From a virus (lineage: Duplodnaviria; Caudoviricetes): a DNA stretch of 64,000 nt. The position numbers were made by a program, and so were the translations under genes. Of this stretch, positions 8,493 to 43,569 are shown piece after piece (within the stretch, counting starts at the first letter, position 1; each line of letters starts with the position of its first letter). The notes under the pieces were generated by a model, which was given only the letters and a program-made list of their open reading frames with translations, was not told the DNA's origin and made no database searches. The DNA lies in the IMG/VR virus record IMGVR_UViG_2862784999_000001, positions 1 through 64,000 of that record, one strand, 5' to 3'.

Positions 8493-9065
8493 TCAGAGCC
8501 CGATGTCTTCCGATGCCTTGGCTAGCGGGTTCCAGTAGCGCGCCTGAACCGTGAGGATCGCCGCAGGTGGCCGCTCCCGATATCTCCGGTACGGCCCGGC
8601 GTCCCGGAACGCTTCGGCGGTGTTGCACCTCTGACATAGCAGCCCGCGAACGAGCCCGGTCGCATGGTCGTGGTCCGTGACGAGGGTGGTTGTTGCGGAG
8701 CAAATCGCGCACCTGCTGGCCTGCCACTCTTCGATCACGGCGAGCCCGTGAACGTCCGGATCGGAGTCTCGGAGCGCGACCTCGTTCGGTAGGTCCCAGC
8801 TCCAGCATGCAGGCGCCATTCCCTCAATCCTCCGACGCACCTCTTGCTCCGCAGCTTCAGCGGCTGCCACCTCGCGGTCATATTCGGCGCGCTCCTCCGA
8901 AGTGAGGTGGCGCAGGCAGGAGCGAGGCCGCCCCTCACGCTTCGGTAGGCGCCAATACGCGAGTGGACTCTGCTGGCAGGCGGTTCCCCGCTTGGTGAGC
9001 CGGCCGCAGGGCGGTGGCGACGAGTAGGCAACCGTGTCCACGTCGAACGGGAACTTGTAGGTCAC
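8493..9065 (-). CDS. Recombination endonuclease VII-domain protein
   Basis: CAIC...DHDHATGLVRGLLCQRCN; N-terminal CGRLTKRGTAC; GTGA-coupled to the recombinase. Confidence 0.88.
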   Translation of the reverse strand: MTYKFPFDVDTVAYSSPPPCGRLTKRGTACQQSPLAYWRLPKREGRPRSCLRHLTSEERAEYDREVAAAEAAEQEVRRRIEGMAPACWSWDLPNEVALRDSDPDVHGLAVIEEWQASRCAICSATTTLVTDHDHATGLVRGLLCQRCNTAEAFRDAGPYRRYRERPPAAILTVQARYWNPLAKASEDIGL

Positions 9066-10219: not shown

Positions 10220-10220
10220 G

Positions 10221-10586
10221 TCACTGTCCCGTAGAGACGTGGATGGACTCGCCCGGCCGGTTGGCGGTGATCGGGAAGTCGTAGGCGCCGAGGATGGTGA
10301 CGAGGGCTCCGTGCATTGCCCGCTGCGCTGCCGTGTAGCGCGCTCGCACCTCCTTGCCGCCTTCATCTTCGAAAGCGATGGCGAGTCGGTCGTGGACCTC
10401 CCAGCGGACCAGGATGCAGCCGAGAGTCATGTCGGCGGTGACTGCCGCGCCTCCCGGGTCGTTTCCGTCGGCGCTCGGATCGGCGTCCATGTTCAGGAGG
10501 TTGATCCCGGCGTCGACAAGGGCGGCCCGCACGGCGTCTTCCAGGTCGATCAGAGCAGGCGTGCACTGAGGCTGAGTCATAGTCAA
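10221..10586 (-). CDS. Hypothetical protein, first gene of the recombinase operon
   Basis: Lies between the dif-like site and the recombinase, ending 2 bp from the recombinase start. Confidence 0.6.
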   Translation of the reverse strand: MTMTQPQCTPALIDLEDAVRAALVDAGINLLNMDADPSADGNDPGGAAVTADMTLGCILVRWEVHDRLAIAFEDEGGKEVRARYTAAQRAMHGALVTILGAYDFPITANRPGESIHVSTGQ

Positions 10587-20900: not shown

Positions 20901-22867
20901 ACAACCCGCTCCTGGGCGCGCGCAATGTTCTCCGCGCCCTGCCGCTGCGCCTCCGAGACGTTCTTCTGCGCCTCAGACAGCTTCGCCTGCGCGTCCGCGA
21001 TCGACCGCGTGTTCTCGATCTGCGTCTTCGCGACGTCAGCTTGCGCCTTCTTCAACGCGCTGGTCTTGTCGATGACGGCCTGCTGCGCCGAAGCAAGCTG
21101 CTCCTGCGCCGACTTGACCGTCGCCGAGCCCTCGACGCCGGCCTTGTTGGCCGCCTTCGTGTCCGCCTGCAACCGCTTGGTCGCCAACTGCTGTTCGTTA
21201 AGCCGCTGCACCGCCCGGTCGTAGGCGAGCAGCACCTTCTGCCGGTCGAGATCCGAGGCGTTGGGGTTGTTCATCACCGCATTGCGTGCGGCCGTTGCTT
21301 CCTTCAACGCGATCTCGGCGTCACGCTCGCTGAGCTGCGAGTCCTTCAGCTGGTTGTTCAAGTCCTGCAGCTGCCGCGACGCCTCCGCGCGGGCCGCCGT
21401 CAGATCCAACTGCGCCTGACGCGACGCCTTCTGCGCCGAAGCGAGATCCTTCTCCGCACGGTCGACCTGCTCGTTGGCCTGCTGCATCCGCTCCGCGGCA
21501 GCCGCATACGCGTCCGCGAGACTGACGCGCGCAGACTTGACCTGTGCCGCAGCCTGCGCGTTCGCCTTCGCCGCGGCTCGCGACGCGTCGCTCACGCCAC
21601 GCTCGGCGTCAGCGATCTGCCGGGCAGCATTGCGCTGCGCAGTCGCCAGCGACTGCTGCGCGCCCGCCATCTGCAGCGCCTTCGACGCGCCCTGCGACGA
21701 CGCCTGACCGCCCTTGTACGTGGCGTTCGTCGCCGCATCCTGGGCAGCCTTCTGAGCCTGCAGAGCAGACCCGATGCCCTTGAATGCGGGCACCGCAACC
21801 AGCGCGATCGAGCCGATACCAGCAGCAGCCGCGACACCAGCCGCAGCGATAGCACCCAGGCCGGCGGCCACCACCGGCAGAGCCGGAATGATCGCCGGGC
21901 CAAACGCGATCGCAGCCGTGATCAGCACCTGCATGCCCGACACGGCAGACGTAGTATCGACATCCACCCGGGCCGTCTGACCATCGAGACGGTTCACCGC
22001 CGCCTGGAACGCCGCCAGTTGAGCGGCAGCCGCACCGGCATCCACGCGGACGTTGACGTCCGCGTTCTGCGAGGACAGGCGCGCCAGGCGGGCCTGGATC
22101 TCCGTGATCCTAGCCAGGGCGCCGCTGGCGTCGATGTCGATTCCGACGCGGGCATCGCGAAGGGACGTCAGCTGCGCCCGCAGGCGAGCGATCTCCACCT
22201 CGGCCGGCGTGGTGTCCGCCCCGATGTTGACATTCGGCAGAGACGCCTCAGCCTGAGCCACCGCGGCCCGCAGACGGGTGCCGAGCTGGCCGTCCGTCTC
22301 CATACGGATCCGCAGCGGGTCGGCCGACACCTCGTCGATCTGCGCCTGCAGGGCCTGCAGCTGTGCGATCGCCCGCGCCGTGTCCGCGCGCACCGCCACG
22401 TTCGGGTGGGCTGCGCCAATACGGCGCAGCCGCTCCTCGATGTCCGCGGCCTGCGCGCGCGCCGTCGCAGCGTCGATGTCGATGCCGACGGTTTTGCCGG
22501 ACAGCGACTCCAGGCGGGCCCGCAATCGGGCGAGGTCCGCATCGATACCCGTGTCGCCGAGCTTGATGTCAAGCTTCGGCATGCTGCGGAACGCTTCAGT
22601 GAGCTTCGCCCGCAGACTCCGCGCGAACGCACCACCCGTGTCCGACCCCTGCCGCGTCGCGGCCGGACGTGCCGCCTTCGCACCTTCGTTGATGCCGTCG
22701 CGGATCGCTGGCGCCAGGTGAGTGACCACCTGACGGCCGATGATCTTCCCGATCTCCTCGCCGACCTGCGTAGCCGGCGGCACAAGAGCGGCCTGCAGTC
22801 GGCCGAGGATGCCCGACGCGTTCGGCAGAACATCGACCTCGACTGAGCCGACAGAGATAGCGGGCAC
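17933..22867 (-). CDS. Tape measure protein with C-terminal NlpC/P60-like peptidoglycan hydrolase
   Basis: About 1640 aa, coiled-coil with aromatic WLW..IKP repeats; PYQWAG...WDCSG...GHT near the C-terminus. Confidence 0.92.
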   Translation of the reverse strand: MPAISVGSVEVDVLPNASGILGRLQAALVPPATQVGEEIGKIIGRQVVTHLAPAIRDGINEGAKAARPAATRQGSDTGGAFARSLRAKLTEAFRSMPKLDIKLGDTGIDADLARLRARLESLSGKTVGIDIDAATARAQAADIEERLRRIGAAHPNVAVRADTARAIAQLQALQAQIDEVSADPLRIRMETDGQLGTRLRAAVAQAEASLPNVNIGADTTPAEVEIARLRAQLTSLRDARVGIDIDASGALARITEIQARLARLSSQNADVNVRVDAGAAAAQLAAFQAAVNRLDGQTARVDVDTTSAVSGMQVLITAAIAFGPAIIPALPVVAAGLGAIAAAGVAAAAGIGSIALVAVPAFKGIGSALQAQKAAQDAATNATYKGGQASSQGASKALQMAGAQQSLATAQRNAARQIADAERGVSDASRAAAKANAQAAAQVKSARVSLADAYAAAAERMQQANEQVDRAEKDLASAQKASRQAQLDLTAARAEASRQLQDLNNQLKDSQLSERDAEIALKEATAARNAVMNNPNASDLDRQKVLLAYDRAVQRLNEQQLATKRLQADTKAANKAGVEGSATVKSAQEQLASAQQAVIDKTSALKKAQADVAKTQIENTRSIADAQAKLSEAQKNVSEAQRQGAENIARAQERVVQAQQSGADSIASAQRQIQSASLSAAGGIDQAAIAQAKYQAELAKLTPAARATLNAFVGLRSAFGDWSKSLQPAVMPIFTRALVSLRNTLPTLTPFVRGAVTAITELQDRASRSVKSPFWQGFKKDLQGNVVPAVVGLGVAIGNLIKGMAGIVDAFLPHMDGISKRMQKITQRFADWGAGLKGSPEFERFLNFASDKAPLLGDALGKIANAFLQVGEALSPLSGPLLQILGGIANAIAIVADKAPWFILLIYGIVVAMRLWTIAQWAFNAAAAANPYTLIVIGILALIAAVVYAYNRFGWFRAGVQAVWDWLKTASLYLWNTVLKPVFTWIGNIVVWLWTYIIKPYIGFIIAYFKGVASVATWLWTNAIQPAFNFIAAAAKILFTALVVIVLLPIIATFKILAATGMWLWNNAIKPAFQGIATVAVWLWKNVFQPTFQQIGDKAKWLWSNAIKPAWDGIKSGAKIMWENVLKPLFDAFVLGLKTVGKWGVWLWKNALKPAWDGIVLVSKWAWDKGIKPVFDGLKSAVGKVADAFKVAKDAIKVAWDKIKGIAKAPVQYVVDVVYNNGIRGVWNKVASAFGAPKLGKFSFASGGIMPGYTPGKDVHRFVSPTGGALELSGGEAIMRPEFTRAVGSGFINTLNSIASSRGAQGVKAALAPAFGGSAPMATDMSSRYAAGGVVQRFADGGIFGWIKSAGSALKGAGSDAWNSIKKGASWLTDTLEASARAGVKNVVNPLLAKFPGMDTGIGKLIRKIPDKIIDALFGYSKKADDKGAGGIGGPRIAAGLKWAKTQAGLPYQWAGNGNPSWDCSGFMSAIESVIRGQKPHRRWATGAFSGKTAPPGWVYHGNSPFKIGITNAGVGHTAGTIAKTNVESRGGAGVVVGSRARGYNDRLFGSWYGFKPGTYDAGGYIPPGLNLVNNGTGRPEPVFTTAQANALTSMAARGGPSGPMSFEGDLRLDSGEFLGRVRGEASAVMREGQQALIQVLNAS

Positions 22868-22889
22868 TGAGGGCCTCCCCTCAGCAGCG

Positions 22890-23351
22890 CTACGCGGCGC
22901 CTCCGTTGAGCAACTCGAACAGGGTGTTGGCCTGCAGATCCGACATCTGCTGTTTCGCCTTGACGGCCCTCGCGCCGGGCCGGCGGATGGGCTCCGGCGC
23001 CGTCGGCCGCTGCGACTTCTTCTCGGTGTTGACGCTGAGCAGCACGTACTCCAGGCGGGCAACCCGGTCCGCGATCACGGCCAAGAGGTGGTCGCTCTGC
23101 GACCAGCGGCCCTTCTCCGGTTCGCCCTTCTCCGACTGCTCCGCAAGCTCTTCATCCGACAGGCCGTTACGAAGGGCAGTCCACGTCGCCGACTCGGACG
23201 GCAGATGCTGGATGAGGACCCGCAGGCGGCGCCATGTCATGGCGCCGCGGTGCACGTCGAGGAGGTCGACACCCTGGTAGTAGCGGAGCAGGTCGGCCTC
23301 TACCGCCTCCGGGTGCGCCTCGACGACGGAGCGGGTCCACTGGATTTCCCC
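22890..23351 (-). CDS. Tail assembly chaperone, -1 frameshift extension (gpT-like)
   Basis: The -1 frame after CTG GGG AAA reads GEIQWTRSVVEAHPEAVEADLLRYYQGVDLLDVHRGAMTWRRLRVLIQHLP. Confidence 0.8.
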   Translation of the reverse strand, partial: GEIQWTRSVVEAHPEAVEADLLRYYQGVDLLDVHRGAMTWRRLRVLIQHLPSESATWTALRNGLSDEELAEQSEKGEPEKGRWSQSDHLLAVIADRVARLEYVLLSVNTEKKSQRPTAPEPIRRPGARAVKAKQQMSDLQANTLFELLNGGAA

Positions 23352-25216: not shown

Positions 25217-25597
25217 TCAGCCGGTGACGCGGTCGGCGGCGAACTGGATGACGCCGCGGGTGCCGGTGAACGGGGAGCGGCCCCAGTCGCCGGGCTCGCC
25301 CGTGATGTCGCAGACAATCCCGCGGACCTTCGCCTTGTCCGTCGTCCTCAACGGCAGGCGAGCATGGCTGGGCTGGCTGGACGGCACGTACACGGTCCAG
25401 CCGACGATGACGGTGTCCCTGGCCTGCTGCTGATCCCCGCCAACCTGCGGTGTCTCCGCTCGCGGAGTGACCACGCAGCCCACCAGGTCGAAGGACTCGT
25501 CCATGCCTGGAAGCGGCTGACCGCGCGGCCCTCGGCCGGGTGACTCGCCCCTGCGCAGGATCCGCACCGTCTCGCCGTAGGGGTACGAGCCGGGCAT
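25217..25597 (-). CDS. Head-to-tail stopper
   Basis: ETVRILR...TVY.P...D..VRG...ITGEP..W.SPFTG...RVTG. Confidence 0.85.
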   Translation of the reverse strand: MPGSYPYGETVRILRRGESPGRGPRGQPLPGMDESFDLVGCVVTPRAETPQVGGDQQQARDTVIVGWTVYVPSSQPSHARLPLRTTDKAKVRGIVCDITGEPGDWGRSPFTGTRGVIQFAADRVTG

Positions 25598-26013
25598 CAG
25601 GGGAACCCCCAGCCCGCCTCGAAGTCCTCCACGAACACGCCGTCGTCGTCGATCGGCCAGGACGCCGACGGATCCGCTGATGCGGGCGTCGGATCGACCG
25701 TGAACGCGCCACCCCGGCCGGCCAGGGACTTCAGCGCCGACTTGTCGGCCTTCGTCAGATACAGGCCGCCCGAACCGGACGGACGCTGAACCGACATCGG
25801 ACCGATCGTCTCGTAAGACACCTGCTGCGGATTCACGTAGGCCCGGCCGGCGACCGAGAGGACGACAGCCTCGGCGCCCTCAGGCAGGGGCGTCACGATC
25901 GTCTGGCAGAGCGAAGTCGCCGTCGAAACGAGAAGGTCAGCGCGGTCGCCTTGGATCTCATCGAGACCCAAGTAGAGGCCGAGCTGCTCGGCTGTCGGAG
26001 ACGTGAAAGCCAT
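25597..26013 (-). CDS. Head-to-tail adaptor
   Basis: VVLSVAGRAYVNP..SYETIGP..GGLYLTKADKSAL. Confidence 0.85.
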   Translation of the reverse strand: MAFTSPTAEQLGLYLGLDEIQGDRADLLVSTATSLCQTIVTPLPEGAEAVVLSVAGRAYVNPQQVSYETIGPMSVQRPSGSGGLYLTKADKSALKSLAGRGGAFTVDPTPASADPSASWPIDDDGVFVEDFEAGWGFP

Positions 26014-26021
26014 GACGCCTC

Positions 26022-27056
26022 CTATCGGGCCAGGCCCTCCACGGCGGAACACCACGCGGCCAGATCGGCCGCCGGATCAAGCTCGACACTGCGGGCCTTC
26101 GCCCGCTTCGACGCCAACCGGTACTCGGCAGAGGTCAGCAACTTCCGCAGCACCGCCTCGTAGCCGGCAACATCCTCGCGATCGACGAAGATGCCCGCCT
26201 CGCCCAGTGATTCGCACAGGCCCGGCGTCGGATGTGCAACGACCGGGATGCCACTCGCGAGCGCTTCCACACCGGTGCGACCCCACGACTCGTAGGACGA
26301 CGGCATGAGCAGCACGCGGGTGCGGGCGTACACCTGCTCCCGCATGTCCTCGCCGCGAACATGCTCGACGATCTCCACGTTCGGCAGGTCCGGGAGGATC
26401 TGCTCCCCGTAAGCGCCCTTCACAGCAAGGAACTGCTGATCCGGCATGCGGCGCGCCAAGGCAGCGAGCACCTTGCCACCCTTCTCCGGATTGCAGTTGA
26501 CCAGCGTGATCGCCTTCCCAGGCTTGGTCGCATACTCGCCGGCGAAGACGGGCGGGCGCACGATCAGCGAAGACTCCGGCCGAACCGACTTCGGGTACTC
26601 GGCAAAGAAGAGCTCCGCCTCCCGCTCCATCCACACCGAGTTGTAGACCGCCAGGGCGGTCCCGCCAGCTGCGGCATCCCGGAACGTCGCGCGGTGCGTG
26701 TTGTGGCAGACCACCACCAGCGGCTTGCCGTAGCCGCGGGCCAAGGACGCCGCCGACGGCACCGTCTCCAGATGGGCGAGCAGCATGTGCGACCGCTTCA
26801 CGGCGGTCGGAAAGTCCAGCCGAGACTCCAGCGGAATCACGCGGATCCCGTGGTACTCGTACTCCTTGTGGGCCTTCCCATACCGCGACAGCCACACCTG
26901 CACGTCGTGGCCACGTTCCACCAGGGGCCGCAGCATCGACACGAGCATGTGCTCCGCGCCCGCATTGTGCTCCGGCGGCATCGCGTGCACCCGGGCAACG
27001 ATCGACAGCGGCTTGGCGGTCCCGCCCGGCGCGGACACCGGGACCGCCCTACTCAC
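26022..27056 (-). CDS. GT-B fold (family 4-like) glycosyltransferase within the head operon
   Basis: GAEH..L...LVERGHDVQV; KGG; LLMPSSYESWGRTGVEALASGIPVV (Ex7E); GTG start overlaps the capsid stop (GTGA). Confidence 0.92.
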   Translation of the reverse strand: MSRAVPVSAPGGTAKPLSIVARVHAMPPEHNAGAEHMLVSMLRPLVERGHDVQVWLSRYGKAHKEYEYHGIRVIPLESRLDFPTAVKRSHMLLAHLETVPSAASLARGYGKPLVVVCHNTHRATFRDAAAGGTALAVYNSVWMEREAELFFAEYPKSVRPESSLIVRPPVFAGEYATKPGKAITLVNCNPEKGGKVLAALARRMPDQQFLAVKGAYGEQILPDLPNVEIVEHVRGEDMREQVYARTRVLLMPSSYESWGRTGVEALASGIPVVAHPTPGLCESLGEAGIFVDREDVAGYEAVLRKLLTSAEYRLASKRAKARSVELDPAADLAAWCSAVEGLAR

Positions 27057-28009
27057 GAGCCGCTCGGGGTACCGGTGAACTTCACGAACGCGTCGGCGTC
27101 GCCCATCACGAAGCCGTAGTACGCCTCCGCGAGGATCAACACCAGGTTCTCCTGGAACGCGCTGTGGACGCCGCCGTCCTCGTCCACGTAGGTCGCCTGG
27201 TCGGAGATCCGCACGGTGATGTCCATGCCCACGCCGTAGGCGGCCTGAGTCCAGTCGCCGCCGATCGCGCGCAGACCCGTGTCCGCAGACGCGGACTGCC
27301 GGCGCTGCTTGCCCGACACGCTCCGCGAGTAGGCGAGCGGCTCGCCGATCAGGGTGCCCGCCGACGCCATGTTCGTGCCCGGCGTCTGCGTGTCGACCAG
27401 GATCGGACGGCCGGTCGTGTCCGTCGCCAGCAGCAGCTTCGGCTTCAGCCGGTGGTCGGCGACCGTGCCCGTGTAGTCGTAGTCCTCGTCGACGACGAGG
27501 TCCATGCCCTTGACGAGGTCGGCCCAGATGCCGCCCTGGCCCTGCGCCGTCGTGCCCAGTGCGACGGACTGCGAGGTCATCGCCAGGTACTCGGCGAAGG
27601 GACCGGTCGCACCCTTCATCGTCTTGCCGTGGATCGCCGCATGGTCGAAGGCCCGCGCGAACGCCGTCGGCAGGTCGTTCTGCAGCTGGGAGTACAGGCC
27701 CGCCGTGTTCGTGCGGGCGACCTCCATCGCGACCGGGATGAGCACGGCGAGCTTCTTCGCCGTCATGTGCTTGACGTCGATGCCGCCGGTCGACAGGGGC
27801 TTCTTCTGCCCCTGACCGACCCAGTCGGCGGTCGGCACGTCCATCGGGATCGGCACGGACGTGGTGGCGTCCAAGGCCAGCGGCGCCTGACGTGCGAGCG
27901 CCATGACCGCGGACTGCTCCACCGACTTCTCGAAGATCGGAGCGGTGATGGTCCGCGGGAGGAGCTCCTCGGGCAGACCGGAGGTAGTGATCGGGGCCGT
28001 AGCCACCAT
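27053..28009 (-). CDS. Major capsid protein (HK97 fold)
   Basis: SAVMALA...WVGQG.KKP...AKKLAVLIPV..E...AFDHAAIHG...GGDW...FQENLVLILAE. Confidence 0.93.
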   Translation of the reverse strand: MVATAPITTSGLPEELLPRTITAPIFEKSVEQSAVMALARQAPLALDATTSVPIPMDVPTADWVGQGQKKPLSTGGIDVKHMTAKKLAVLIPVAMEVARTNTAGLYSQLQNDLPTAFARAFDHAAIHGKTMKGATGPFAEYLAMTSQSVALGTTAQGQGGIWADLVKGMDLVVDEDYDYTGTVADHRLKPKLLLATDTTGRPILVDTQTPGTNMASAGTLIGEPLAYSRSVSGKQRRQSASADTGLRAIGGDWTQAAYGVGMDITVRISDQATYVDEDGGVHSAFQENLVLILAEAYYGFVMGDADAFVKFTGTPSGS

Positions 28010-29517: not shown

Positions 29518-30961
29518 CAGACACCTCCGCAGCCGTCGGCAAGCCGACCGCAGGCCGCTCGTTCACCGCGGCCAGCCGATCCAGCAGGCCGCCACCGGTA
29601 GCTGCCGCCGACGAGCGACGGCGGTCCACGGCAATCCGCTGCCGCTGACCCTCGGTGAACCCGGCCATCTCCAACGTGACGTCGGAGTCCGCCGGCAGGA
29701 CACCTGCCTGGACCAGCTTGACGGTCGCGTCGACTTGCGCGGCCACCGTCGGGGTCGCCGGGTTCCGCCACACCGTTTCGATGCGGCGCGTGCTGTCCGG
29801 CGGCTCACCGTCACGAACCCAAAGGGCCAGCCGCATCGCCTGCTGCCATCCCGCACCGAACCGCCGGATCCGGCGCTCCGCCTTCTTCACCTGCCGGTTA
29901 TCCGCGAACCGAATCGCGTCCGCTGACGCTGGATTGTCACTGCTGTAGCCCAGTACGTGCGGCGCCACCGACATCTGCGACGCCATAATCCTGGCATACA
30001 GGTCGATGAACTTCGTCATGCCCGACGGATCATGAGCAGCGAACTGACCCACGGTCGGAATGGCGCCGTCCTCGTCCCGCTCCAACGCCAGCACCCGGCC
30101 GATGTACGTCTCCCAGGCGGACTTGGCGTTGCCCTCCGCGTCCTGGAACGCCGACTCCGACGCACCCAGGATGTAGCGCTGCGGCGCCCCGTAGAACTCG
30201 GCGGCAACCTCCATGCCCATCAGCCGGCGGCACGCCGCATCCGTGATCGACATGACCTCCGGGGTGATCTCCGACTTGCCGACCCGGTCCGCGGTCCGCT
30301 GCCGATTCGCCAACCGAACCACCGGCACGACCCCCAGGCCGTGCATGTCCCGATCGACAACCTCCCAGCCACCCGACGGCGACGGCACAGCCATCACCGT
30401 CTGGTCCGGCAGATACAGGACCAGCATCCGCTCCTCGGGGCCCGACTCGACGAACGAGTCAGCGGCGCACTCGCGGAGCGCGGCCGTGCCCATCCGCAGG
30501 CGGGCATCCCACATCAGCGTCATGTCCAGCGGCGACTCAGCCGAGATCAAGGGCGGACAGTCGTCCCCACAGTCCCCCGCTCCGACCGCCAGATACTCGC
30601 GGCCGTACACCAGCGCATCCAGGTGCGCGAGGCTCGACTCGTCGAACAAGTCGTTCGCCTCGGCGATCTCCGTCAGCTCCGAAGCGTCAGCACCATCGGC
30701 CCAGCGGAACGCCTCCAAGTCGAGGCGCTCCTCCAGCGATTCGACACCGACCCGCGGCCAGCCGATCACCGTGTGCAAGCCACGGAGCTGCGGAGGGATA
30801 GAGATACCGAGGTCGCGGACCAGCTGCTCGCCGTTGAAGTAGGCGTCGCGCAACTTGAGTTCCCACCGGTCCCGCAGCATGTCCGCGCGAAGCACGTTGA
30901 TCAGCGCGAGCTCGTCATCCGACAACGTCAGCAGCGGCAGGTCAGGAATCGAGACGGTCAC
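29498..30961 (-). CDS. Portal protein (SPP1 gp6-like)
   Basis: YFNGEQ..LGI..P; WPRVGV..LEERL; GKSEIT; EFYGAPQRYILG; NPASADA. Confidence 0.92.
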   Translation of the reverse strand: MTVSIPDLPLLTLSDDELALINVLRADMLRDRWELKLRDAYFNGEQLVRDLGISIPPQLRGLHTVIGWPRVGVESLEERLDLEAFRWADGADASELTEIAEANDLFDESSLAHLDALVYGREYLAVGAGDCGDDCPPLISAESPLDMTLMWDARLRMGTAALRECAADSFVESGPEERMLVLYLPDQTVMAVPSPSGGWEVVDRDMHGLGVVPVVRLANRQRTADRVGKSEITPEVMSITDAACRRLMGMEVAAEFYGAPQRYILGASESAFQDAEGNAKSAWETYIGRVLALERDEDGAIPTVGQFAAHDPSGMTKFIDLYARIMASQMSVAPHVLGYSSDNPASADAIRFADNRQVKKAERRIRRFGAGWQQAMRLALWVRDGEPPDSTRRIETVWRNPATPTVAAQVDATVKLVQAGVLPADSDVTLEMAGFTEGQRQRIAVDRRRSSAAATGGGLLDRLAAVNERPAVGLPTAAEVSGGDGGL

Positions 30962-32589
30962 CGCAACACCACCACCCGTCCCGACTTGCCGGTCTTCTTC
31001 TTGCCGAGCCCCTTGGCCATGGCGTCTACTCGGGCTTGCCATGCGAGGACAGCAGCAATGGCGGCGTCGATCTTCTTCGGACTGTCGGGGTGCTCTTTCA
31101 TGATCTGGATACCGCTGCGCGACTCCCGCCGGCGAGAGTTCAGGATGTGCCTCGTCAGCACGCTCGACCCGTCGTGTGAAAGCTCCCCGTCGACGACGCT
31201 CGACCGGAACTTCTCCAGCGCGCGCACGATCTGATTGGAACGACCTCCGGTCATCCACCACTCGATCGGATGCTGAGTCGACGACTTGAGCTTCAGTCGG
31301 CGCCCGTGATCCGCCTCCCACTTCGCCACATGCGACTCCCACCTGGCCGGGTCCGCATACATGCCGACGACCTTGTACTCGCGGAACGCGTCCTCGACGG
31401 CTGCCAGCACCTCGACAGTGGGGACCTGCCAGTCCTGGCCAAAAGGCCCGTCAGGCTGCTCCCAGCAGCCGAGAAGGAAGAGATGACCGTCGGACACCCG
31501 GCAGCCGACCAAGGCGGTGGCGTCCGTGACGCCGCGGTTTCGTCGCCGCGAACCGTCGAAACCAAGGACAATCTCCTCGCCGCGACCGACGACCTTGTCG
31601 GCGGCGGCTACGCCAGCCCACTCGGGCTGCGAGATCCACGAGTCGGATGCGTGAGTGATCTGATTGAGGAAGTCGGCGCGGGCCGTCTGCGGGTCTGTAC
31701 TCGGATCCCAGATCGTGGCAACGATCGTGTCCAGGTCGACGTGCCCGCCGTTACGGTCGGCCGAGTCGCCGTAGGTGTACGCCAAGCCAGCCGTAAGCGA
31801 CTGGCGGTCCGTCATGTCGGTCTCAGGCGGGGCCTCGCGATGGTCGTAGTACAGCCCGTCATCCCGAGCCCGGCCCTCCCGGATCTTGGCCCAGAACGCC
31901 GCCGACTCCTCTGCTACCGATCCCTCTCCGGGAGTGAAGGCGTTTGGGGACTCGATGGTCGTACCGCCGACCTTCGCGGCGTTGATACGCATCGTCTCCG
32001 CTAGCCGGTTGCCGCGGTTCGAACGCACCCACTCCTCGGTCTGGTCCAGCACAGCGAAGACCGGCTTGTTGCCCTTCACTGTTCGAGCCGACGACGTGAT
32101 CGGCTCGATCCTCCCCCGTGGCAGATTGACGAAAGTGTCCAGCGGCTCCAGGCCCGGATACTCGTCGATGACCGGCCCCTGCAGCATCTCCAGCAGCGGC
32201 GCCCACGTGTTCTTCGTCTGGGTCTCTGACACCGCGGCGATCTGCACCAGTGGTGTGCGCACCTCAGACCACGGCTTGCCGACAGGCTGTCCATCAGCGT
32301 CCCAGCCATCTGGGACCACCGGGCCGAGAGCCTCAACGATCGCCAGTGCTGCGAGGAAGGGGCTCTTCCCCCACCCGCGCGGGCGACTGATGACCCCTCG
32401 CCGGAAGCGTCGCTTTCCGGTACGTGGGTCGATCTCGTAGTAGCGGAGGACAAAATCCTCCTGCTCCGGATACAGCAGGAACGGCTCGTAGTCGCCTCGG
32501 TCCGGAGCTGCCAGCATCTCCGAGATCCAGTCGATGACCTCGAATCCGAGGGTCGGGACGGCTCCGGGCTCCGACGGCTTCCACGGCAT
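30958..32589 (-). CDS. terL: Terminase large subunit
   Basis: Walker A RPRGWGKS, LDQTEE, RNase H-like LGFDGS..DATAL, KKIDAA. Confidence 0.95.
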   Translation of the reverse strand: MPWKPSEPGAVPTLGFEVIDWISEMLAAPDRGDYEPFLLYPEQEDFVLRYYEIDPRTGKRRFRRGVISRPRGWGKSPFLAALAIVEALGPVVPDGWDADGQPVGKPWSEVRTPLVQIAAVSETQTKNTWAPLLEMLQGPVIDEYPGLEPLDTFVNLPRGRIEPITSSARTVKGNKPVFAVLDQTEEWVRSNRGNRLAETMRINAAKVGGTTIESPNAFTPGEGSVAEESAAFWAKIREGRARDDGLYYDHREAPPETDMTDRQSLTAGLAYTYGDSADRNGGHVDLDTIVATIWDPSTDPQTARADFLNQITHASDSWISQPEWAGVAAADKVVGRGEEIVLGFDGSRRRNRGVTDATALVGCRVSDGHLFLLGCWEQPDGPFGQDWQVPTVEVLAAVEDAFREYKVVGMYADPARWESHVAKWEADHGRRLKLKSSTQHPIEWWMTGGRSNQIVRALEKFRSSVVDGELSHDGSSVLTRHILNSRRRESRSGIQIMKEHPDSPKKIDAAIAAVLAWQARVDAMAKGLGKKKTGKSGRVVVLR

Positions 32590-32590
32590 G

Positions 32591-33070
32591 TCAGCTCCCC
32601 GTCGACTCCTCCGGTGGCGGAAGCGCACGAAGAACACCGCGGCGCTCCCTAGCCGACCGGCCACCCTCGGGCCTCTTGCTATCGGCTTCGTCGGCCTGCG
32701 CGAACTGCATCCGCAGTCGCGCCCTGTCCTCCGGAGTCGCGCCGAACTTCGCCACCCGCAGTCGCAGCTCCCCGGCCGCCGACATCTCCCCCGACCACAG
32801 CCGGGCATGCACGACAGCCGTGTCCAGGAGGAAGTCCCAGTCGGTCGACGAGAAGTGCTCCGCCTGGGGCGACGCCTTCCACATCTCCCACCAGTCCAGC
32901 GTCCTCGCCGGCCACGCGTACTCGACCAGATCGCCGTCCTTCATCACCGACAGGGTCGGGAGTTCGGGCGGCTCGGCCTGCTCGAAGCGCAGGATCGTCT
33001 GAGCGTGCGGGTCCTTGCTATGCCCAGCTCGCCGCCTCGGGTCCTTCGGCGCGGGTCCGCGGCCAGCCAT
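32591..33070 (-). CDS. terS: Terminase small subunit
   Basis: MAGRGPAPK...WW..W..SPQA...DW...ELRLRVAKFGATPEDRARLR. Confidence 0.92.
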   Translation of the reverse strand: MAGRGPAPKDPRRRAGHSKDPHAQTILRFEQAEPPELPTLSVMKDGDLVEYAWPARTLDWWEMWKASPQAEHFSSTDWDFLLDTAVVHARLWSGEMSAAGELRLRVAKFGATPEDRARLRMQFAQADEADSKRPEGGRSARERRGVLRALPPPEESTGS

Positions 33071-37708: not shown

Positions 37709-37903
37709 TTACTCGGCGGCTTCACGGCCGTCGAGGCTGTGGTGGGTGTAGACCCAGCCGTCGGATCCGTCACCCATCGGGCTGGGGCTGGGCGTGGGTC
37801 CGCACGGGCAGAGGTCGGTGAGGTCGCGGACGAGCAGGTCGTCGAGCGGGGCGACGTGGACTTCGTTGCCGCCGGTCTGCTTGGCCAGCCACTGCCCGCT
37901 CAT
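37709..37903 (-). CDS. Small His/Cys-rich hypothetical protein
   Basis: HVAPLDDL...CPCGP...HHSLDGRE; ATGA-coupled to the epimerase gene. Confidence 0.65.
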   Translation of the reverse strand: MSGQWLAKQTGGNEVHVAPLDDLLVRDLTDLCPCGPTPSPSPMGDGSDGWVYTHHSLDGREAAE

Positions 37904-38766
37904 GCGGCGAGCGCCCGCGCGATGCCTTCTTCGAGGCTGACGCGAGGCTGGTACACGTCGAGCATCCGCTTCGGGTCGCACACGCGGTGGTGGACGCCTT
38001 GGGGTGCGGTGGCGAGGTGCTTCAACTCGGGCTGGTAGCCGGCTGCGATAGTGACGAGGCCGGCGAGTTCGTCGAAGCTGGTCGCCCTGCCCCAGCCGAT
38101 GTTCATCGGCCCGGTGGCGTCCTGGTCGACGGCTGCGAGGGTGGCGCCGACGAGATCCGAGATGTGCACCCAGTCGCGCGTGCTACTGCCGTCGCCCCAG
38201 ATCTCGAACGGATCCTGCCGCTCGCGGGCCCGGCGGATGAACGCGGGGAACGGGTAGCAGTCGTCTTGATCTTCGCCGTAGCCGGAGAACGGCCGCAACG
38301 AGTGGACGCGGCAGCCTTCGGCTTCGGCGTACTGGGCGAGCTGCTCCCCCGCGAGCTTGGCGAGCCCGTAGGTCGCGTCGGGTCGTCCGGGCTGCTCGTA
38401 GTTGATGTCCGTCTCGACGAGCCGGTGGATCTCGCCGGGCTGCTGAAGCGCGACCGGGTAGGCGGCTGAGCTGGAGAAGTAGACGGCGCGCGGGGTGCCG
38501 GTGCGGATCAGCCACCGGAAGTACCAGGCGTCCAGCGCTAGATTGGTGGCGACCCCGAGCGGCGATCCGTCGATGCTGGCCCGGCCGCCGACGACTGCCG
38601 CGCAGTGAATGGCGAGGTCGTAGGGCCGCTGGTCGAAGCGGTACAGATCGAGTGCGTCGCGGCCGTCGATGAGGTCGACGCCGGTGACATCGTCGCCTCG
38701 CTCGTCGAGTGCGGCGTGCAGGTGGCGGCCGACGAAGCCCCGGTGGCCGGTGAGGAGAACGCGCAT
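37900..38766 (-). CDS. NAD-dependent nucleotide-sugar epimerase/dehydratase (extended SDR)
   Basis: LLTGHRGFVG (GxxGxxG), FSSSAAY, YGLAK (YxxxK), IWGDGSSTRDWVHISD. Confidence 0.93.
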   Translation of the reverse strand: MRVLLTGHRGFVGRHLHAALDERGDDVTGVDLIDGRDALDLYRFDQRPYDLAIHCAAVVGGRASIDGSPLGVATNLALDAWYFRWLIRTGTPRAVYFSSSAAYPVALQQPGEIHRLVETDINYEQPGRPDATYGLAKLAGEQLAQYAEAEGCRVHSLRPFSGYGEDQDDCYPFPAFIRRARERQDPFEIWGDGSSTRDWVHISDLVGATLAAVDQDATGPMNIGWGRATSFDELAGLVTIAAGYQPELKHLATAPQGVHHRVCDPKRMLDVYQPRVSLEEGIARALAA

Positions 38767-39365
38767 CAGCCGGCTGCCTTGACGGCCCGGTAGACGCCCC
38801 AAGGCAGGTGGCTGTCGATGGGCTCCAGTCCGATCCGCGCGCACGCCTCGTCCTGCTGTTCCTTGGACCAGGTGGTGACGCCGATCCAGCTGTCGGCTTC
38901 GGCGGGCTGGTCGCTGAGTGGCCAGTCGAGGACGAGGATCCCGCCGAGTTTCGTCGCGGCCCGCAGCTTGGCGACGATGTTGAGGCAGTCGCTGTAGCTG
39001 TGGTGGATGAGGACGGCGAGGCTGTAGACGGCGTCCATTCGGCGGCGGCCGAGGTGCTTGGCGATGCCGTCGGCGTCTGCGAGGACGGCGTCAGCGTCGG
39101 GGAGGCGTTCGGCGAGCCGTTCGAGCATGCGTGGCGAGGAGTCGACGGCGGTCACCTCGTAGCCGAGGACGGTCATGGGGATGGCGACGCGGCCGTCACC
39201 GCAGCCGAAGTCGAGCACCTTCGCCCCGTCGGGGATGACGGTGGCGAGCATCTCCGCCTGGTCCTGCCCGGACTCCCAGTACGCGTCTTCGGACACGCGG
39301 CGGAGCGGGTGAATCGCTTCGGGGTCGGCCTGATCCCAGGCCTGGATGACAGCTTCGGCGGTCAC
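38766..39365 (-). CDS. Class I SAM-dependent methyltransferase
   Basis: VLDFGCGDGR, AVDSSPRML, DAVYSLAVLIH, GGILVLD. Confidence 0.92.
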   Translation of the reverse strand: MTAEAVIQAWDQADPEAIHPLRRVSEDAYWESGQDQAEMLATVIPDGAKVLDFGCGDGRVAIPMTVLGYEVTAVDSSPRMLERLAERLPDADAVLADADGIAKHLGRRRMDAVYSLAVLIHHSYSDCLNIVAKLRAATKLGGILVLDWPLSDQPAEADSWIGVTTWSKEQQDEACARIGLEPIDSHLPWGVYRAVKAAG

Positions 39366-40072
39366 GCTGCCTCCTCGACGAGCTTCCGCAGCTTGACGAG
39401 GTCGGCTTCGAGCCCGCCGTTGTCGCGGTAGTCGATGTAGGCGGCGCCGTCAGCCTGGGAGCGTTCCGGGCTGTTGCAGTCCTCGTAGACGGCGTCGAGG
39501 CTGGCCTTCCCGGCGGCCGGGTGCAGGTGCTCGATGACCATGTCGTCGAGGTAGGTGATCCGTCCCATGCCCTTCCCCCAGTCGAGCCAGACGAGGTCGA
39601 GGCAGAGGTGGACGAGCTGTGGCGGCGCCATGTAGTCCAGCGTCGTGACGATGTCGGAGGTCATTGCGACGGCGGTGGCCATGGCTTGGCCTTGGAGCAG
39701 GTCGTTGCCGTAGACGATGCCGGGGCCGCCGGACAGGCACTCCCGGATCCGGGCGTCCCACGCCATCGTTGCGGCCCGGGGCCGGTGGTCGTCGCCCATG
39801 AAGGCGAGGTACCGGTAGTTGGGGGCGTTCTTCACCGCGGCCTGGTTGAGGGTGCCGCACAGCCGCTTCCGCGCCCAGAACACAAACCGCACCCGCTGGT
39901 CGTCGGCGAGATCCTTCGCCAGCGCCTTGTACGCGGCAAGCTCCGGATCGTCCTTGTCGACACAGAACAGCAGGTCGGCGGTCGCCCCGGTGTCGTCCCA
40001 CGCCTGCACGATCTCGGGCACGGCCTGGGGTCGGCCGCGGGTGGGGATGATGACGAGCAGGTCGTCGGCCAT
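39362..40072 (-). CDS. GT-A fold (family 2-like) glycosyltransferase
   Basis: LLVIIPTRGRP, FMGDDH (DxD-like), IEHLHP. Confidence 0.88.
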   Translation of the reverse strand: MADDLLVIIPTRGRPQAVPEIVQAWDDTGATADLLFCVDKDDPELAAYKALAKDLADDQRVRFVFWARKRLCGTLNQAAVKNAPNYRYLAFMGDDHRPRAATMAWDARIRECLSGGPGIVYGNDLLQGQAMATAVAMTSDIVTTLDYMAPPQLVHLCLDLVWLDWGKGMGRITYLDDMVIEHLHPAAGKASLDAVYEDCNSPERSQADGAAYIDYRDNGGLEADLVKLRKLVEEAA

Positions 40073-40084
40073 GGCGCGGGCTCC

Positions 40085-40372
40085 TCAGTTGATCGTGAAG
40101 CGCGGGGATTTGATGACGGGCCGCTCTGGTGGGGCCTGGATGCGCACCCAGGTCCGGTAGGTGCCGGGTCCGGGGTCGATGGCGCCGTCGGGGCCGATGA
40201 GGATCATCGCGACGTGATGCCCGTTGTCGGTGCCCCAGGCGGCGGCATGCCAGTCGCCTGGCTCGGGCCGTTCACCGTCTTCGAGGACGGCGACCTCGAC
40301 CGTGTATCCGGCGGGGTCGCCGCTGCCCGCGGTGACGGGGGTCATCAGATATTCGCTGCTCTCGCGTTCCAC
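40085..40372 (-). CDS. Small Ig-like (BppU-like) virion adaptor protein
   Basis: SEYL..PVT...LIGP..G.Y..WVRI..PE.PV; follows the long repeat protein. Confidence 0.6.
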   Translation of the reverse strand: MERESSEYLMTPVTAGSGDPAGYTVEVAVLEDGERPEPGDWHAAAWGTDNGHHVAMILIGPDGAIDPGPGTYRTWVRIQAPPERPVIKSPRFTIN

Positions 40373-40380
40373 CAGACCCC

Positions 40381-43140
40381 CTACGTGTGCGGCTGCTGCG
40401 CTCTCCAGGAGCTGTACGGCGCGCCGGCTTCATGCCGGGGGCGGAGGGTTCCTGCGGCCCAGCGGGTGCGGGGGGCTCCGGCGGTGAGCGTGTCGAGTTG
40501 TTCGACGGGCCCGGGTCCGGTGACGCCGCCTGCCGCGATGAGGGCTGCGAGGACGGCGAGTTGGCCGGTGATTTTCCGCGTGACGGCGGGGGTTGCGCTC
40601 GTCGTCGCTGTGACGGCGAGGCTGGCTGTGCTGGTGACGGCGACAGTCCCGCTGGCGGCCAGGCTCGCGGTGGCGGTGAGCGCGGCGGATCCGTCGCCTG
40701 CAGCGGTAACGGTTCCGTCGGCGGTTGCCGTTGCGGTCGCCGCGAGTTGCGCGCCACCCGCGGTGGCAAGGTCACCGTGGGCGGTCGTGCCCGCGCTGAC
40801 GTCCAGAGTGTCCGCGGGGGCGGAGGTGCCGAGCGCACCTTCGGCTGCTGTCCCCGCGGTAGCTGTGAGGCTCCCGCCGCTGGCCGTTGCGCGGGTTCCC
40901 GCTGCCGCCGCGGTAGCAGTGGCGTCGAGGAGTCCGTTGCCGGCTGCCGCGGTTTGGCCGTCGGCGATGAGGCCAGCGGTTGCCGTGAGGCTGGCCGACG
41001 ATTCGCCTGCCGCGCTGACCGCGCCTGCCGCAGTGGCGGTCGCGGTGGCCGCGAGTACGGCGGCGGCCTGGCTGGACGCTGCCCCGCCGGCTGCCGCTGT
41101 CGCGACGGCGGTCAGGTCTGCCGAGCCTTGTGCGGCTCGAATTCCGTCGCTGGTGGCGGTCGCGGTCGCCGCGAGGTCTGCGGTGCCGGTTCGGCCGGGA
41201 ACGCCCGAGGCGGCCAGGCCTGCCACGGCTGCGAGTTCTCCGCCCGCTGTTGCCGCGACTGTGCCGCTGGCGGATCCGGTTGCGGCGGCGGTGAGGCTGC
41301 CAGCCCCGGTCGCTGCACGGTCGCCGCTGCTCGTGGCGGTGGCCGTGACGGCCAGGTCGCCGGCGAGGTCGCGCCCGACGCTGCCGCTGGCCGCGATGGT
41401 TGCTGTACCCGCGAGGCTGCTCGCTCCGGTGCCTGCGACGGCTCCTGCCGAGGTCGCTGTGCCGGTGGCCGCGAGTGCTGCCTGGCCGCTGGCCGCCCTG
41501 GCGCCTGCGCTGCTCGTCGTCGCAGTGACCGCGAGGCTTCCTACTCCGACCGTGCTGGTGGTACCAGCCGCTGTCGGTGCGGCCGTGGCGGCGAGTGTTG
41601 CTGCCCCTGCCGCTGCGGTCATTCCGGCTGCTGTCGGGGATGCGGTGGCGGTGAGCGTGCCAGCGCTGGCCGTTGCAGACGACCCGGCGGCCGTGAGGGC
41701 TGCGGTCGCGGCGAGCGTGGCGGCACCGGCCGCGTCGCGGGTACCGGTCGCACTGCTGACGGCGGTTGCCGCGAGGGTGGCGCTGCCTGCCGCGGCAACG
41801 GCCCCTGAGGCGGATGCGGTTGCTACTGCGGCGAGGCTTCCACCAGCCGCTGTCGCCCGCTGTCCTGTTGCGGTGGGGCTGGCGGTCGCGGCGAGCGTCC
41901 CGCTGCCCGAGCCGCCGAGAGCGCCGGTTGCTGTCGCGGTGGCGGCGCCGGTGAGGCTTCCGTCGCCGGTGACCGCGTTGACGGGCACGTACTCGACGAG
42001 CGCCCACGCGGTGGAGATGCGGCGGGTAGTGGTCTGAGAGGTGTTGGAGCGGTAGCCGATCTGCGCGTTGGCGAGGGTGGCTGCCGTCCAGGCGGTGCTG
42101 GTCTGCGGATTGCTGTAGGCGGTGAGCTGGTACAGGCGGGGGACGGCCGCTTTGTGCGTCGACCAGCCGTTGACGTTGACGGAAGTCGACGCGGATTCGG
42201 AGACGGTGCCGCCGGACTGGCCTTTGATGCGGGTGACGATGCTCGCTGCGGTGGTGGCGTTGGAGCCGATCCGCACGCCGACGGAGACGAGGCTGATCGC
42301 GTCGGAGGCGCCGATCCCTGCGCTAGTCGGGGAGGTGAGGGTGAAGTCGTCGATCGTGGTGGTGCCCGTGGCGATCGTCGAGTTGTAGCTGGTCGCGTCG
42401 TTGGGCGTGACTTCGTTGACGCGGGTCCAGTTGTTCGCGGCGCCCGCGGTGCCGCCGACGACGGTGGCGAAGCCGTTGTTGTCGCCCTGCCCTGCGGGCT
42501 GGAGGTGGACCACGGTGCCGGGGCCGGGGAGGCCGGTCTGTGCCGTGCCCGTCGTGTCGTTGACGGCGATGTCGTCGATGCAGATGTCCAGCGAGTTCGC
42601 TGACTGGAGGGCGCCGGCACGGACGCGACTGAACCCGTTGATGTTGGTGCACATCTGGTCGCTGACCAGGGTGCCGTCGATGTACAGCTTGAACGCGGAG
42701 GTCCCGGCCGTGATCGTGCCCGCGACGTCGTTGAAGTCCGCTTCGATCCGGTACCACTGGCCGATGCTGAGCGGGCTGGTGGCGGAGCCGAGGTCACTGC
42801 TGGCCTGATCGTCGCGGAGGACCAGGCTGCCGTCGGTCTTCAGCCGGATCATGCCGGGGAAGTAGCCGGACTGGCCGATCCCGTACACATTGCAGTCGGC
42901 GGCCGGGAGCGCGTTGATGTACAGGTAGAAGCGGTGGAATGTCCGCATGACGACACCGCTGGTCAGCTGGTGCTCGATGTAGGACGTGCCCGCGGTCGGG
43001 GTGACGCGCAGGGAGGCCGCGCCGCCGCGGTGGATGCTGGTGGAGATGGCCGGTGAGCCGCCGACGGTGTTGACGTCCTGCGTCTCGACGAGGGCTGTCA
43101 CGGACTGGAGCTCGAAGCCGCACGTCCACATCCGCGCCAC
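40381..43140 (-). CDS. 919-aa virion fibre/scaffold protein: N-terminal lectin-like beta domains plus about 24 x 20-aa Ala/Thr/Gly repeats
   Basis: LamG-like pattern (IGQWYRIE...LYIDG...IDDIAVND); repeat xxxxLxxTAxxxAxGxxxxx; short GxPxxxW-type repeats at the C-terminus. Confidence 0.75.
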   Translation of the reverse strand: MARMWTCGFELQSVTALVETQDVNTVGGSPAISTSIHRGGAASLRVTPTAGTSYIEHQLTSGVVMRTFHRFYLYINALPAADCNVYGIGQSGYFPGMIRLKTDGSLVLRDDQASSDLGSATSPLSIGQWYRIEADFNDVAGTITAGTSAFKLYIDGTLVSDQMCTNINGFSRVRAGALQSANSLDICIDDIAVNDTTGTAQTGLPGPGTVVHLQPAGQGDNNGFATVVGGTAGAANNWTRVNEVTPNDATSYNSTIATGTTTIDDFTLTSPTSAGIGASDAISLVSVGVRIGSNATTAASIVTRIKGQSGGTVSESASTSVNVNGWSTHKAAVPRLYQLTAYSNPQTSTAWTAATLANAQIGYRSNTSQTTTRRISTAWALVEYVPVNAVTGDGSLTGAATATATGALGGSGSGTLAATASPTATGQRATAAGGSLAAVATASASGAVAAAGSATLAATAVSSATGTRDAAGAATLAATAALTAAGSSATASAGTLTATASPTAAGMTAAAGAATLAATAAPTAAGTTSTVGVGSLAVTATTSSAGARAASGQAALAATGTATSAGAVAGTGASSLAGTATIAASGSVGRDLAGDLAVTATATSSGDRAATGAGSLTAAATGSASGTVAATAGGELAAVAGLAASGVPGRTGTADLAATATATSDGIRAAQGSADLTAVATAAAGGAASSQAAAVLAATATATAAGAVSAAGESSASLTATAGLIADGQTAAAGNGLLDATATAAAAGTRATASGGSLTATAGTAAEGALGTSAPADTLDVSAGTTAHGDLATAGGAQLAATATATADGTVTAAGDGSAALTATASLAASGTVAVTSTASLAVTATTSATPAVTRKITGQLAVLAALIAAGGVTGPGPVEQLDTLTAGAPRTRWAAGTLRPRHEAGAPYSSWRAQQPHT
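40513..41967 (-). repeat. About 24 degenerate 60-bp (20-aa) coding tandem repeats
   Basis: Examples: GSGTLAATASPTATGQRATA / AGGSLAAVATASASGAVAAA / GSATLAATAVSSATGTRDAA. Confidence 0.85.
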
Positions 43141-43173
43141 GGCGACCTCCCGACGGTCAGGCCGCGGTCAGGA

Positions 43174-43569
43174 TCAGGAGGCCTGCGGTGAGAGGGAGAG
43201 GCTGAGCGACGTCGCCGTGAACGTGTCGCCCGACGACCACGCCTTCGACGAGCTGAGGGCGACGGAGAACAGGAACGTGCCGCCGGAGGCTGCGGACCAT
43301 ACGGAGATGTCGGTGATCGTCTCGCTGGTGCCGCCGTTCGTCCACGACGGGTTAGTGCCGGTGAGGGCGAGCGCGGACCCGGACGAGGACGCGGCGAACG
43401 TGAAGACGGGCCGGGTCGTCGAGCCGGCGGACACCGCGGTGGTTCCGGCCGCCCCGGGGTTCGCGGTGTGGATCTGCGCGTAGGTGGTGATCGGCCCATA
43501 GGCCGCGCCGGCCGTCCGCAGGGTGTTGAGCCAGCTGGATACCAGGGAGGTGGAGAGGCCCTCAGCCAT
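43174..43569 (-). CDS. Small Ser/Thr-rich beta-sandwich virion fibre subunit
   Basis: QIHTANPGAAG...ETITDISVWSAASGGTFLFS...GDTF resembles a widespread phage structural family. Confidence 0.7.
   Translation of the reverse strand: MAEGLSTSLVSSWLNTLRTAGAAYGPITTYAQIHTANPGAAGTTAVSAGSTTRPVFTFAASSSGSALALTGTNPSWTNGGTSETITDISVWSAASGGTFLFSVALSSSKAWSSGDTFTATSLSLSLSPQAS

Follow-up and report, generated by a model that had tools for sequence, protein, structure and literature searches.

In the window analysed here, the first 64 kb of the 86.6-kb IMG/VR virus record IMGVR_UViG_2862784999_000001 (68% G+C), a 919-aa (amino acid) protein built largely of 20-aa repeats is encoded on the minus strand (40381..43140, stop codon included) between the genes for a 131-aa protein (43174..43569, upstream) and for a 95-aa protein, p95 (40085..40372, downstream), both on the same strand. 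This locus raises the question of whether the repeats make up a shaft of their own or whether, as an earlier note on this DNA proposed, each of them completes the fold of one small subunit. We consider it reasonably probable (roughly 0.65) that the three neighbouring genes encode a ‘beads-on-a-rope’ (i.e. chain-like) virion fibre as in the phages GP4, A1002 and Bas63, with the 131-aa protein as the bead and the 919-aa protein as the rope. The locus is most likely a very long member of this recently described fibre type and not a new principle.

A proposed bead of the Gp80 family next to an array of 20-aa repeats

Residues 5-126 of the 131-aa protein align to positions 2-127 of the 128-position model of the Pfam family PF23140, ‘Podophage GP4 fiber I protein gp80’, with a score of 72.7 bits (cut-off 27; E 4.7e-20), and this match was reproduced in a scan of the whole record. 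It also matches phrog_240 (E 8e-20) and the GP4 gp80 chain in the PDB (8jou_a, E 3e-6, residues 6-123 on 5-134). We found 389 relatives at E<=0.001, with PF23140 present in all 120 that were listed, while a tblastn search of cultured phages gave no match at 1e-5. Membership of the family suggests that the protein folds as a helix plus an incomplete beta-sandwich and forms a dimer.

Bead-and-rope fibres have been recognised only recently, in a handful of cryo-electron microscopy (cryo-EM) structures of phages of Gram-negative hosts. In Bas63, the whisker monomer consists of an N-terminal helix and an incomplete beta-sandwich. Dimers of this Gp80-like whisker protein are strung ‘like beads on a string’ along a rope, which completes the sandwiches; the rope is an N-terminal extension of the immunoglobulin-like (Ig-like) collar at the adaptor and carries two dimers (PMC12609058). 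According to the same report, the rope of GP4 is a protein of its own, with five dimers bound to it, and interlocks with an Ig-like collar (PMC12609058). In the A1002 fibre, 11 dimers each form an augmented beta-sheet with a fiber-dock domain along a rope of ~300 Å, at a spacing of about 27 Å per dimer, and the main dock segment, residues 243-468, provides 226 aa for the 11 dimers; GP4 gp77 is listed there as a collar (PMC13730344). Neck whiskers are described for Sf14 as well (PMC11821841). The strand-per-subunit idea is therefore not new, as it is the published ‘chain-like fiber’ architecture, at which the earlier note had arrived with nothing but the sequence. Our literature search did not find bead-and-rope architecture in actinophages, and a mycobacteriophage baseplate preprint contained none of six related terms.

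The proposed serial docking sites occupy residues 386-870 of the 919-aa protein (40531..41985, minus strand). Leu recurs at 396, 416 and so on up to 861, in steps of 20 aa except from 696 to 718 (+2), 758 to 779 (+1) and 799 to 821 (+2), and cutting at the conserved Gly yields 24 tandem units. Of these, 21 have exactly 20 aa, and the other three have 22, 21 and 22 aa, in full agreement with the earlier note, which had counted about 24 repeats with a fixed Leu and three insertions of 1-2 aa. Across the 21 exact units, Leu11 is invariant (21/21), followed by Ala15 (20/21), Ala19 (17/21), Gly1 (16/21) and Gly7 (13/21); the consensus reads GxxAAxGAGxLAATATxTAx. At lag 20 the identity amounts to 0.398, a value reached in 0 of 1000 shuffles, the maximum of which at any lag from 3 to 60 was 0.266. 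The only outstanding lags are 20, 40 and 60, with neither period 3 nor period 7 standing out, so that the repeats, lacking a G-X-Y or heptad period, do not fit a collagen-like or coiled-coil shaft, as had been judged before.

Even lags exceed odd lags, a pattern expected of beta-strands, and in the strand half of the unit small hydrophobics (L, A/V, A, x, A) take turns with Thr, as they would in an amphipathic edge strand. Ala, Thr, Gly and Ser make up 77% of the region, which has one large hydrophobic residue per 20 aa. Since the units are only 51% identical in DNA and Tandem Repeats Finder called no 60-bp tandem array, the repeats are old and maintained at the protein level; third codon positions at identical residues agree in 41% of cases, which is near random. 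AlphaFold2, run with 121 aligned homologues, gave residues 394-919 a predicted local distance difference test score (pLDDT) of 30-55 and drew a single short strand in each unit (pLDDT <50 over 394-796 and 849-919 in this monomer model, to which an oligomeric fold is invisible), and a sequence search of the repeat region against the PDB returned no match at E<=10. An independent fold of the repeats is therefore not predicted, including the self-folding beta-helix that the earlier note had named as the outcome contrary to its proposal.

The 919-aa open reading frame (ORF) lies 33 nt downstream of the 131-aa gene and begins at a GTG, with GGGAGG 6 nt before it. An artefact of a GC-rich ORF was rejected on the basis of third-position G+C (GC3; head 0.94, repeats 0.75), more than 100 homologues and the Shine-Dalgarno site. 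Second-position G+C climbs to 0.82 in the repeats (40531-41985) while GC3 drops from 0.94 to 0.75, and the long plus-strand ORFs at 39521-42037 and 42122-43483 are frame shadows antisense to the 919-aa gene.

In the bead-and-rope arrangement that we favour, the repeat region of the rope would by itself be an unfolded or extended chain. Each 20-aa unit would offer one amphipathic strand (L-A-A-T-A-T-x-T-A), with small hydrophobics on one face and Thr on the other, followed by a Gly-rich linker. Copies of the 131-aa protein, probably dimers, would clamp successive units, with the rope strand filling the open edge of the incomplete sandwich, and the number of units (24) would set the bead count and hence the length of the fibre. 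The C-terminal tail would dock on p95, which is probably placed on the head-tail adaptor ring to give a neck fibre, and the N-terminal ConA-like domain would be the free end, probably binding or cutting glycans. The earlier proposal that a repeat completes the fold of a small subunit thus gains support from the Gp80 membership of the 131-aa protein and, by analogy, from its solved relatives.

Conservation of the pairing and the predicted number of beads

We fetched 80 viral loci using an alignment of 48 bead relatives. In 52 of them, the next downstream ORF contains a stretch with 20-aa periodicity that spans roughly 5 to 30 units, and the typical rope consists of a LamG-like head of ~165 aa, the repeats and a GAPYSPW-type tail like that of the 919-aa protein, the N-terminal domain of which is absent from the periodic ropes of these 80 loci. 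The 21 distinct rope lengths tend to fall close to a multiple of 20 aa (uncorrected for relatedness; Rayleigh R 0.57, p about 0.001), consistent with the earlier suggestion that fibre length is set by repeat number. One locus in a Streptomyces genome (L005) agrees with this cassette in its bead and its Ala/Thr/Gly repeats, and also has p95 and a glycosyltransferase.

Starting instead from the N-terminal head, we compared 20 loci, 18 of them genomic and the other two from the phages Keanu and Hiyaa. A Gp80-like gene upstream, with the cassette as here and neutral Ala/Thr/Gly repeats, is found at L005 only. At 11 of the 20 loci the upstream gene encodes a 148-aa phrog_26662 protein and the repeats are charged (ALGxAxExxxAxxLGRxK), and at four it encodes a protein of about 215 aa and the repeats are Arg/Thr-rich. 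Such variation of the repeat flavour with the small protein upstream is expected if the two touch. Pfam detected nothing at E<0.01 in eight proteins, small or encoded upstream, from the related genome loci, and aligning the bead alignment with the ~215-aa family by hhalign gave a probability of 0.15% (a shallow profile of four sequences). A protein language model provided a weak lead (0.86) from the 148-aa protein to Gp80.

The period extends to other phages with Gp80-like genes. In GP4 (MH638294), gp80 is followed by gp79, a 325-aa protein annotated as ‘virion-associated’ (locus L103, 8948-9925, minus strand), and residues 21-245 of gp79 have a lag-20 identity of 0.21 (0/2000 shuffles) with a 10-aa sub-period, over about 11 units. 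A tblastn search with GP4 gp80 gave matches in 492 phage records, of which 412 are Mycobacterium phages, and the 20-aa period was significant in 3/3 examined mycobacteriophage ‘minor tail proteins’ that flank Gp80-like genes (0/500 shuffles each): Akoma gp33 (L104, 4757-5959), Crossroads gp24 (L105, 4340-6628) and P3MA gp24 (L107, 2816-3970). In Akoma and P3MA, the Trp motifs are N-terminal and a Gly-rich domain is C-terminal, a polarity opposite to that of the Streptomyces ropes. The Pseudomonas phage Rollin has a row of proteins of 395, 171, 126 (Gp80-like), 147 and 667 aa, all annotated as hypothetical (L106, 2285-6834), the sizes of which mirror those of A1002 gp42, gp41, gp40 and gp39.

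The solved fibres bear on how many beads the rope may carry. In A1002, 226 dock residues for 11 dimers amount to about 20 aa per dimer, and in Bas63 the two dimers appear, judging from the collar cysteines, to sit on an extension that ends before residue 52. In GP4, the 10 gp80 chains of 8jou compare with about 11 gp79 units, which, if gp79 is the rope, would mean one unit for each monomer. On these figures, the rope described here would carry either 24 or 48 beads, and the bead-to-rope ratio, predicted earlier as 24:1, may be 48:1 given that the solved beads are dimers. The fibre would be roughly 30-65 nm long if the A1002 spacing applies. We tentatively extend this to a broader idea, in which we place less confidence than in the fibre itself: in tailed phages generally, the 20-aa period could be a docking code for Gp80 beads, each unit taking up one bead or one pair of beads, with a rope that is disordered until the beads template it and a multivalent and possibly glycosylated fibre, the reach and avidity of which are tuned by gain and loss of 60-bp units. 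The same architecture could then underlie the ‘minor tail proteins’ beside Gp80-like genes in the 412 mycobacteriophage records, and the fibre described here, with ~24-48 beads, a length of up to ~65 nm and a glycan-binding or -cutting head, would be the longest yet.

The even/odd lag alternation and the one short AlphaFold2 strand per unit would also fit repeats that fold alone or as a homotrimer, forming a beta-solenoid or triple beta-helix shaft, with the 131-aa protein as an unrelated decoration or tip protein; two homologues are indeed named ‘beta strand repeat-containing protein’ by NCBI, and an oligomeric fold would escape monomer prediction. We regard such a shaft as unlikely: pLDDT is low across the whole repeat region, the composition, with a single large hydrophobic per unit, would make a poor solenoid core, the pairing with a Gp80-like gene is conserved (52/80), the solved Gp80-family cases sit on a rope in the reports cited, and the repeat flavour tracks the type of the neighbouring small protein.

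The sugar genes directly downstream of p95 bring up another alternative. A glycosyltransferase (39362-40072), a methyltransferase (38766-39365) and an NAD-dependent sugar epimerase (37900-38844), all on the minus strand and with Pfam and PHROG matches, may serve to glycosylate the beads or the Thr-rich rope. The full set comes after the cassette in L005 and in 8/80 viral loci, and the glycosyltransferase and methyltransferase are also present in L054, where the DNA ends inside the methyltransferase match. Together with the Thr-rich face of each strand and the low pLDDT, this recurrence could point to a flexible, O-glycosylated, mucin-like stalk modified by the adjacent enzymes, in which the small protein has no templating role. 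As the sugar genes are frequent but not constant neighbours, with most cassettes lacking them (full set in 8/80), as the invariant Leu, the conserved Gly and the fixed 20-aa spacing exceed the needs of a glycosylated linker, and as charged flavours that are not Thr-rich still keep the 20-aa period, we consider this alternative improbable as a replacement for the bead-and-rope arrangement, although glycosylation of the rope is compatible with it.

The proposed C-terminal anchor, the probable neck position and the N-terminal head

The proposed anchor of the rope is its C-terminal tail (residues 871-919; 40381..40530, minus strand), which carries two GxPxxxW motifs, G888-W894 (GAPRTRW) and G906-W912 (GAPYSSW); tails of the GAPYSPW type are also found in ropes of the viral loci. 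AlphaFold2 models p95, the proposed collar or adaptor piece holding the rope C-terminus, as a six-strand Ig-like sandwich (pLDDT 96.9). A p95 gene follows 30 of 51 evaluable periodic ropes, and it co-occurs with a Trp-rich tail: 29 ropes have both, 21 have neither, one has p95 only (a wrong-frame ORF) and none has the tail only. A HMMER scan found 601 relatives of p95. In 11 of the 150 listed, the Ig-like domain forms the C-terminal end of a longer protein, in most cases one with repeats, and comes straight after Trp motifs; in nine it stands at the N-terminus of 258-346-aa proteins, of which 5/5 tested (P0249, P0251, P0257, P0274 and P0323) match head-tail adaptor PHROGs (phrog_442, 137 and 783). 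The co-occurrence and the fusions in relatives together support the docking of the C-terminal Trp motifs on the Ig-like protein, as the earlier note had suggested, and would place the fibre at the neck. Judging by the sequences of these relatives, the p95-adaptor domain fusion would mark the mounting site of the fibre, and the fusions in other phages would make the head-tail adaptor Ad1 (25597..26055, minus strand; phrog_137, E 2.4e-10) the seat of p95.

At the boundary between the two genes, the TAG stop of the rope is followed by 8 nt (GGGGTCTG) and then by the GTG of p95 in a different frame (window 40373-40383, minus strand). Rope and p95 are a single continuous protein in relatives, with the break at exactly the rope-stop/p95-start point, and from this comparison we read the boundary as gene fission or fusion within the family. 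A second tail class, in 21/51 periodic ropes (e.g. L023, L029 and L060), lacks Trp, is never adjacent to a p95 gene and ends in repeated RRGEPAVP / TARGGA motifs or in SGPxL...TSGG.

The head-to-tail adaptor gene of Hiyaa and Keanu comes immediately after the rope gene. The latter, gene 13 of the Hiyaaviruses (about 1106 aa; L001 for Keanu and L002 for Hiyaa, genes 10-14), lies between the capsid genes and the adaptor, and the genes before it encode a methyltransferase, a 279-aa protein whose C-terminus is connector-like, and the 148-aa phrog_26662 protein. Despite its ‘minor tail protein’ label, the product of gene 13 probably forms a neck fibre.

The proposed distal head of the 919-aa protein, residues 1-390 (41971..43140, minus strand), is modelled with a pLDDT of about 90-98 as two beta-sandwich domains, a ConA-like jelly roll (residues 1-200) followed by a second sandwich. 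Foldseek returned 282 PDB matches at E<=0.001 for the head, the best being the glucuronan lyase 2zzj (E 1.1e-7, TMt 0.62, 15% identity), along with X122 domains, alginate lyases, sialidase lectin domains and the TM4 gp23 receptor-binding domain 9n6a, whereas a sequence search of residues 1-390 against the PDB gave a chance match only. The lectin-like character ascribed to this N-terminus by the earlier note is therefore well founded, and the domain is probably the free end, or tip, of the fibre, binding or cutting cell-wall glycan. Matching of phrog_14065 is confined to residues 1-431. The domain is common to 160 proteins; among the 120 head homologues listed, the best lag is 20 or 40 in 96 and the repeats are of the neutral Ala/Thr/Gly flavour in seven. 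A bead-and-rope fibre mounted elsewhere (at the tail tip or capsid) in the opposite polarity, with the N-terminal domain as the anchor, would suit the conservation of this domain in 160 proteins with differing ropes and tails, as is usual for the virion-proximal end of a fibre, and the mycobacteriophage periodic proteins, which carry a minor tail protein annotation, are located among tail genes and have N-terminal Trp motifs, but it has little chance of being correct given that fusions join the p95 domain to rope C-termini as well as to head-tail adaptors, that W-tail and p95 co-occur, that a carbohydrate-binding or lyase fold at the N-terminus is typical of receptor-binding ends, and that the ropes of Bas63 and A1002 are, in the cited reports, held at their C-terminal side (PMC12609058, PMC13730344).

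Contrary evidence, genomic setting and known systems

Several of our results weigh against a bead-and-rope fibre at this locus. Gp80-like loci without a 20-aa periodic neighbour account for 28 of the 80; 10 of these 28 have no downstream ORF of at least 120 aa, and in two of the 10 the DNA ends within ~230 bases of the bead gene. Most head homologues pair with the 148-aa protein and not with a Gp80-like one, and aligning the bead alignment with the 148-aa family by hhalign gave a probability of 0.4% (a shallow profile of nine sequences). In GP4, gp79 matches no PDB entry by sequence and, being assigned from position and periodicity, is a candidate rope. The 667-aa neighbour in Rollin, likely an A1002-type rope, has no significant 20-aa period (222/500 shuffles reach it), which means that periodicity is not required for a rope. 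The p95 model matches generic Ig-like domains only (Foldseek best E 7.6e-3; VIA Z<=7.1), p95 gave no BLASTP match to GP4 gp77, and the 8JOU and Bas63 collar chains are not among the 50 matches listed for the p95 model by Foldseek or VIA. Finally, low pLDDT is no proof of disorder, as monomer prediction is blind to a homo-oligomeric fold.

PHROG scans of 37 ORFs of the window identify the element as a temperate, siphophage-type Streptomyces prophage with its genes on the minus strand, among them the integrase (9062-10366), tape measure (17933-23062), major tail protein, major capsid protein (27053-28009) and large terminase (30958-32808). The fibre cassette lies upstream of the terminase as a co-directional run of the 131-aa, 919-aa and 95-aa genes and then the sugar genes.

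The locus suggests that the bead-and-rope design is common in actinobacterial phages, and since the rope here is a very regular 20-aa array, it is readable from sequence. If correct, this would allow such fibres to be recognised, and their length and number of beads to be predicted, by a rule based on sequence, would reassign many ‘hypothetical’ and ‘minor tail’ genes, and would offer a simple system in Streptomyces, which is non-pathogenic, for studying how a disordered chain is templated into a multivalent receptor-binding fibre.

The donor-strand complementation of pili invoked by the earlier note is found in chaperone-usher pili. There, an incomplete Ig-like sandwich is completed in trans by an amphipathic strand of alternating small hydrophobics; every subunit passes its N-terminal strand to its successor, and a chaperone and an usher are needed. 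The candidate strands described here all lie in one continuous 919-aa chain, and the PHROG scan detected no chaperone or usher families among the 37 window proteins. The chaperone-usher scheme does not fit this locus.

Gene 13 of the Hiyaaviruses (Hiyaa, Keanu, Galactica and Spocter), annotated as a ‘minor tail protein’, shares the N-terminal 386 residues at 56-66% identity, and there too 20-aa repeats follow the head and a small gene lies directly upstream. It differs in its charged repeats, a second LamG-like insert and an SGPxL...TSGG tail with neither Trp motifs nor p95, and its upstream 148-aa phrog_26662 protein is not detectably Gp80.

With A1002, in which the gp39 nozzle-rope binds gp40/gp41 dimers, the proposed fibre would share serial docking of Gp80-fold dimers by beta-sheet augmentation and a globular domain at the far end; the A1002 rope, however, belongs to the nozzle protein and there are two bead proteins, and the likely homologue in Rollin lacks a significant period. 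Like the fibre proposed here, Bas63 (and Sf14) has Gp80-like dimers on a sandwich-completing rope joined to an Ig-like collar at the adaptor, and p95 relatives also unite rope and Ig-like domain in one chain. Bas63 nevertheless has two dimers per rope and a rope fused to the collar, as compared with 24 units, separate genes and a large distal head here.

GP4 Fiber-1 (PDB 8JOU) is alike in that its bead is a sequence homologue of the 131-aa protein, its rope comes from a separate gene and the order is bead and then periodic protein, with a 20-aa period in gp79; the small cassette protein gp77, described as Ig-like in the cited report, has 93 aa (chain 8jou_D) as compared with 95 aa for p95. The differences are these: GP4 is a podophage of a proteobacterium with, as reported, five dimers per fibre, as opposed to 24 units in a siphophage-type Streptomyces prophage; p95 has no detectable sequence similarity to gp77 and only generic Ig-like structure matches; and the 919-aa rope, unlike that of GP4, carries a 390-aa ConA-like head.

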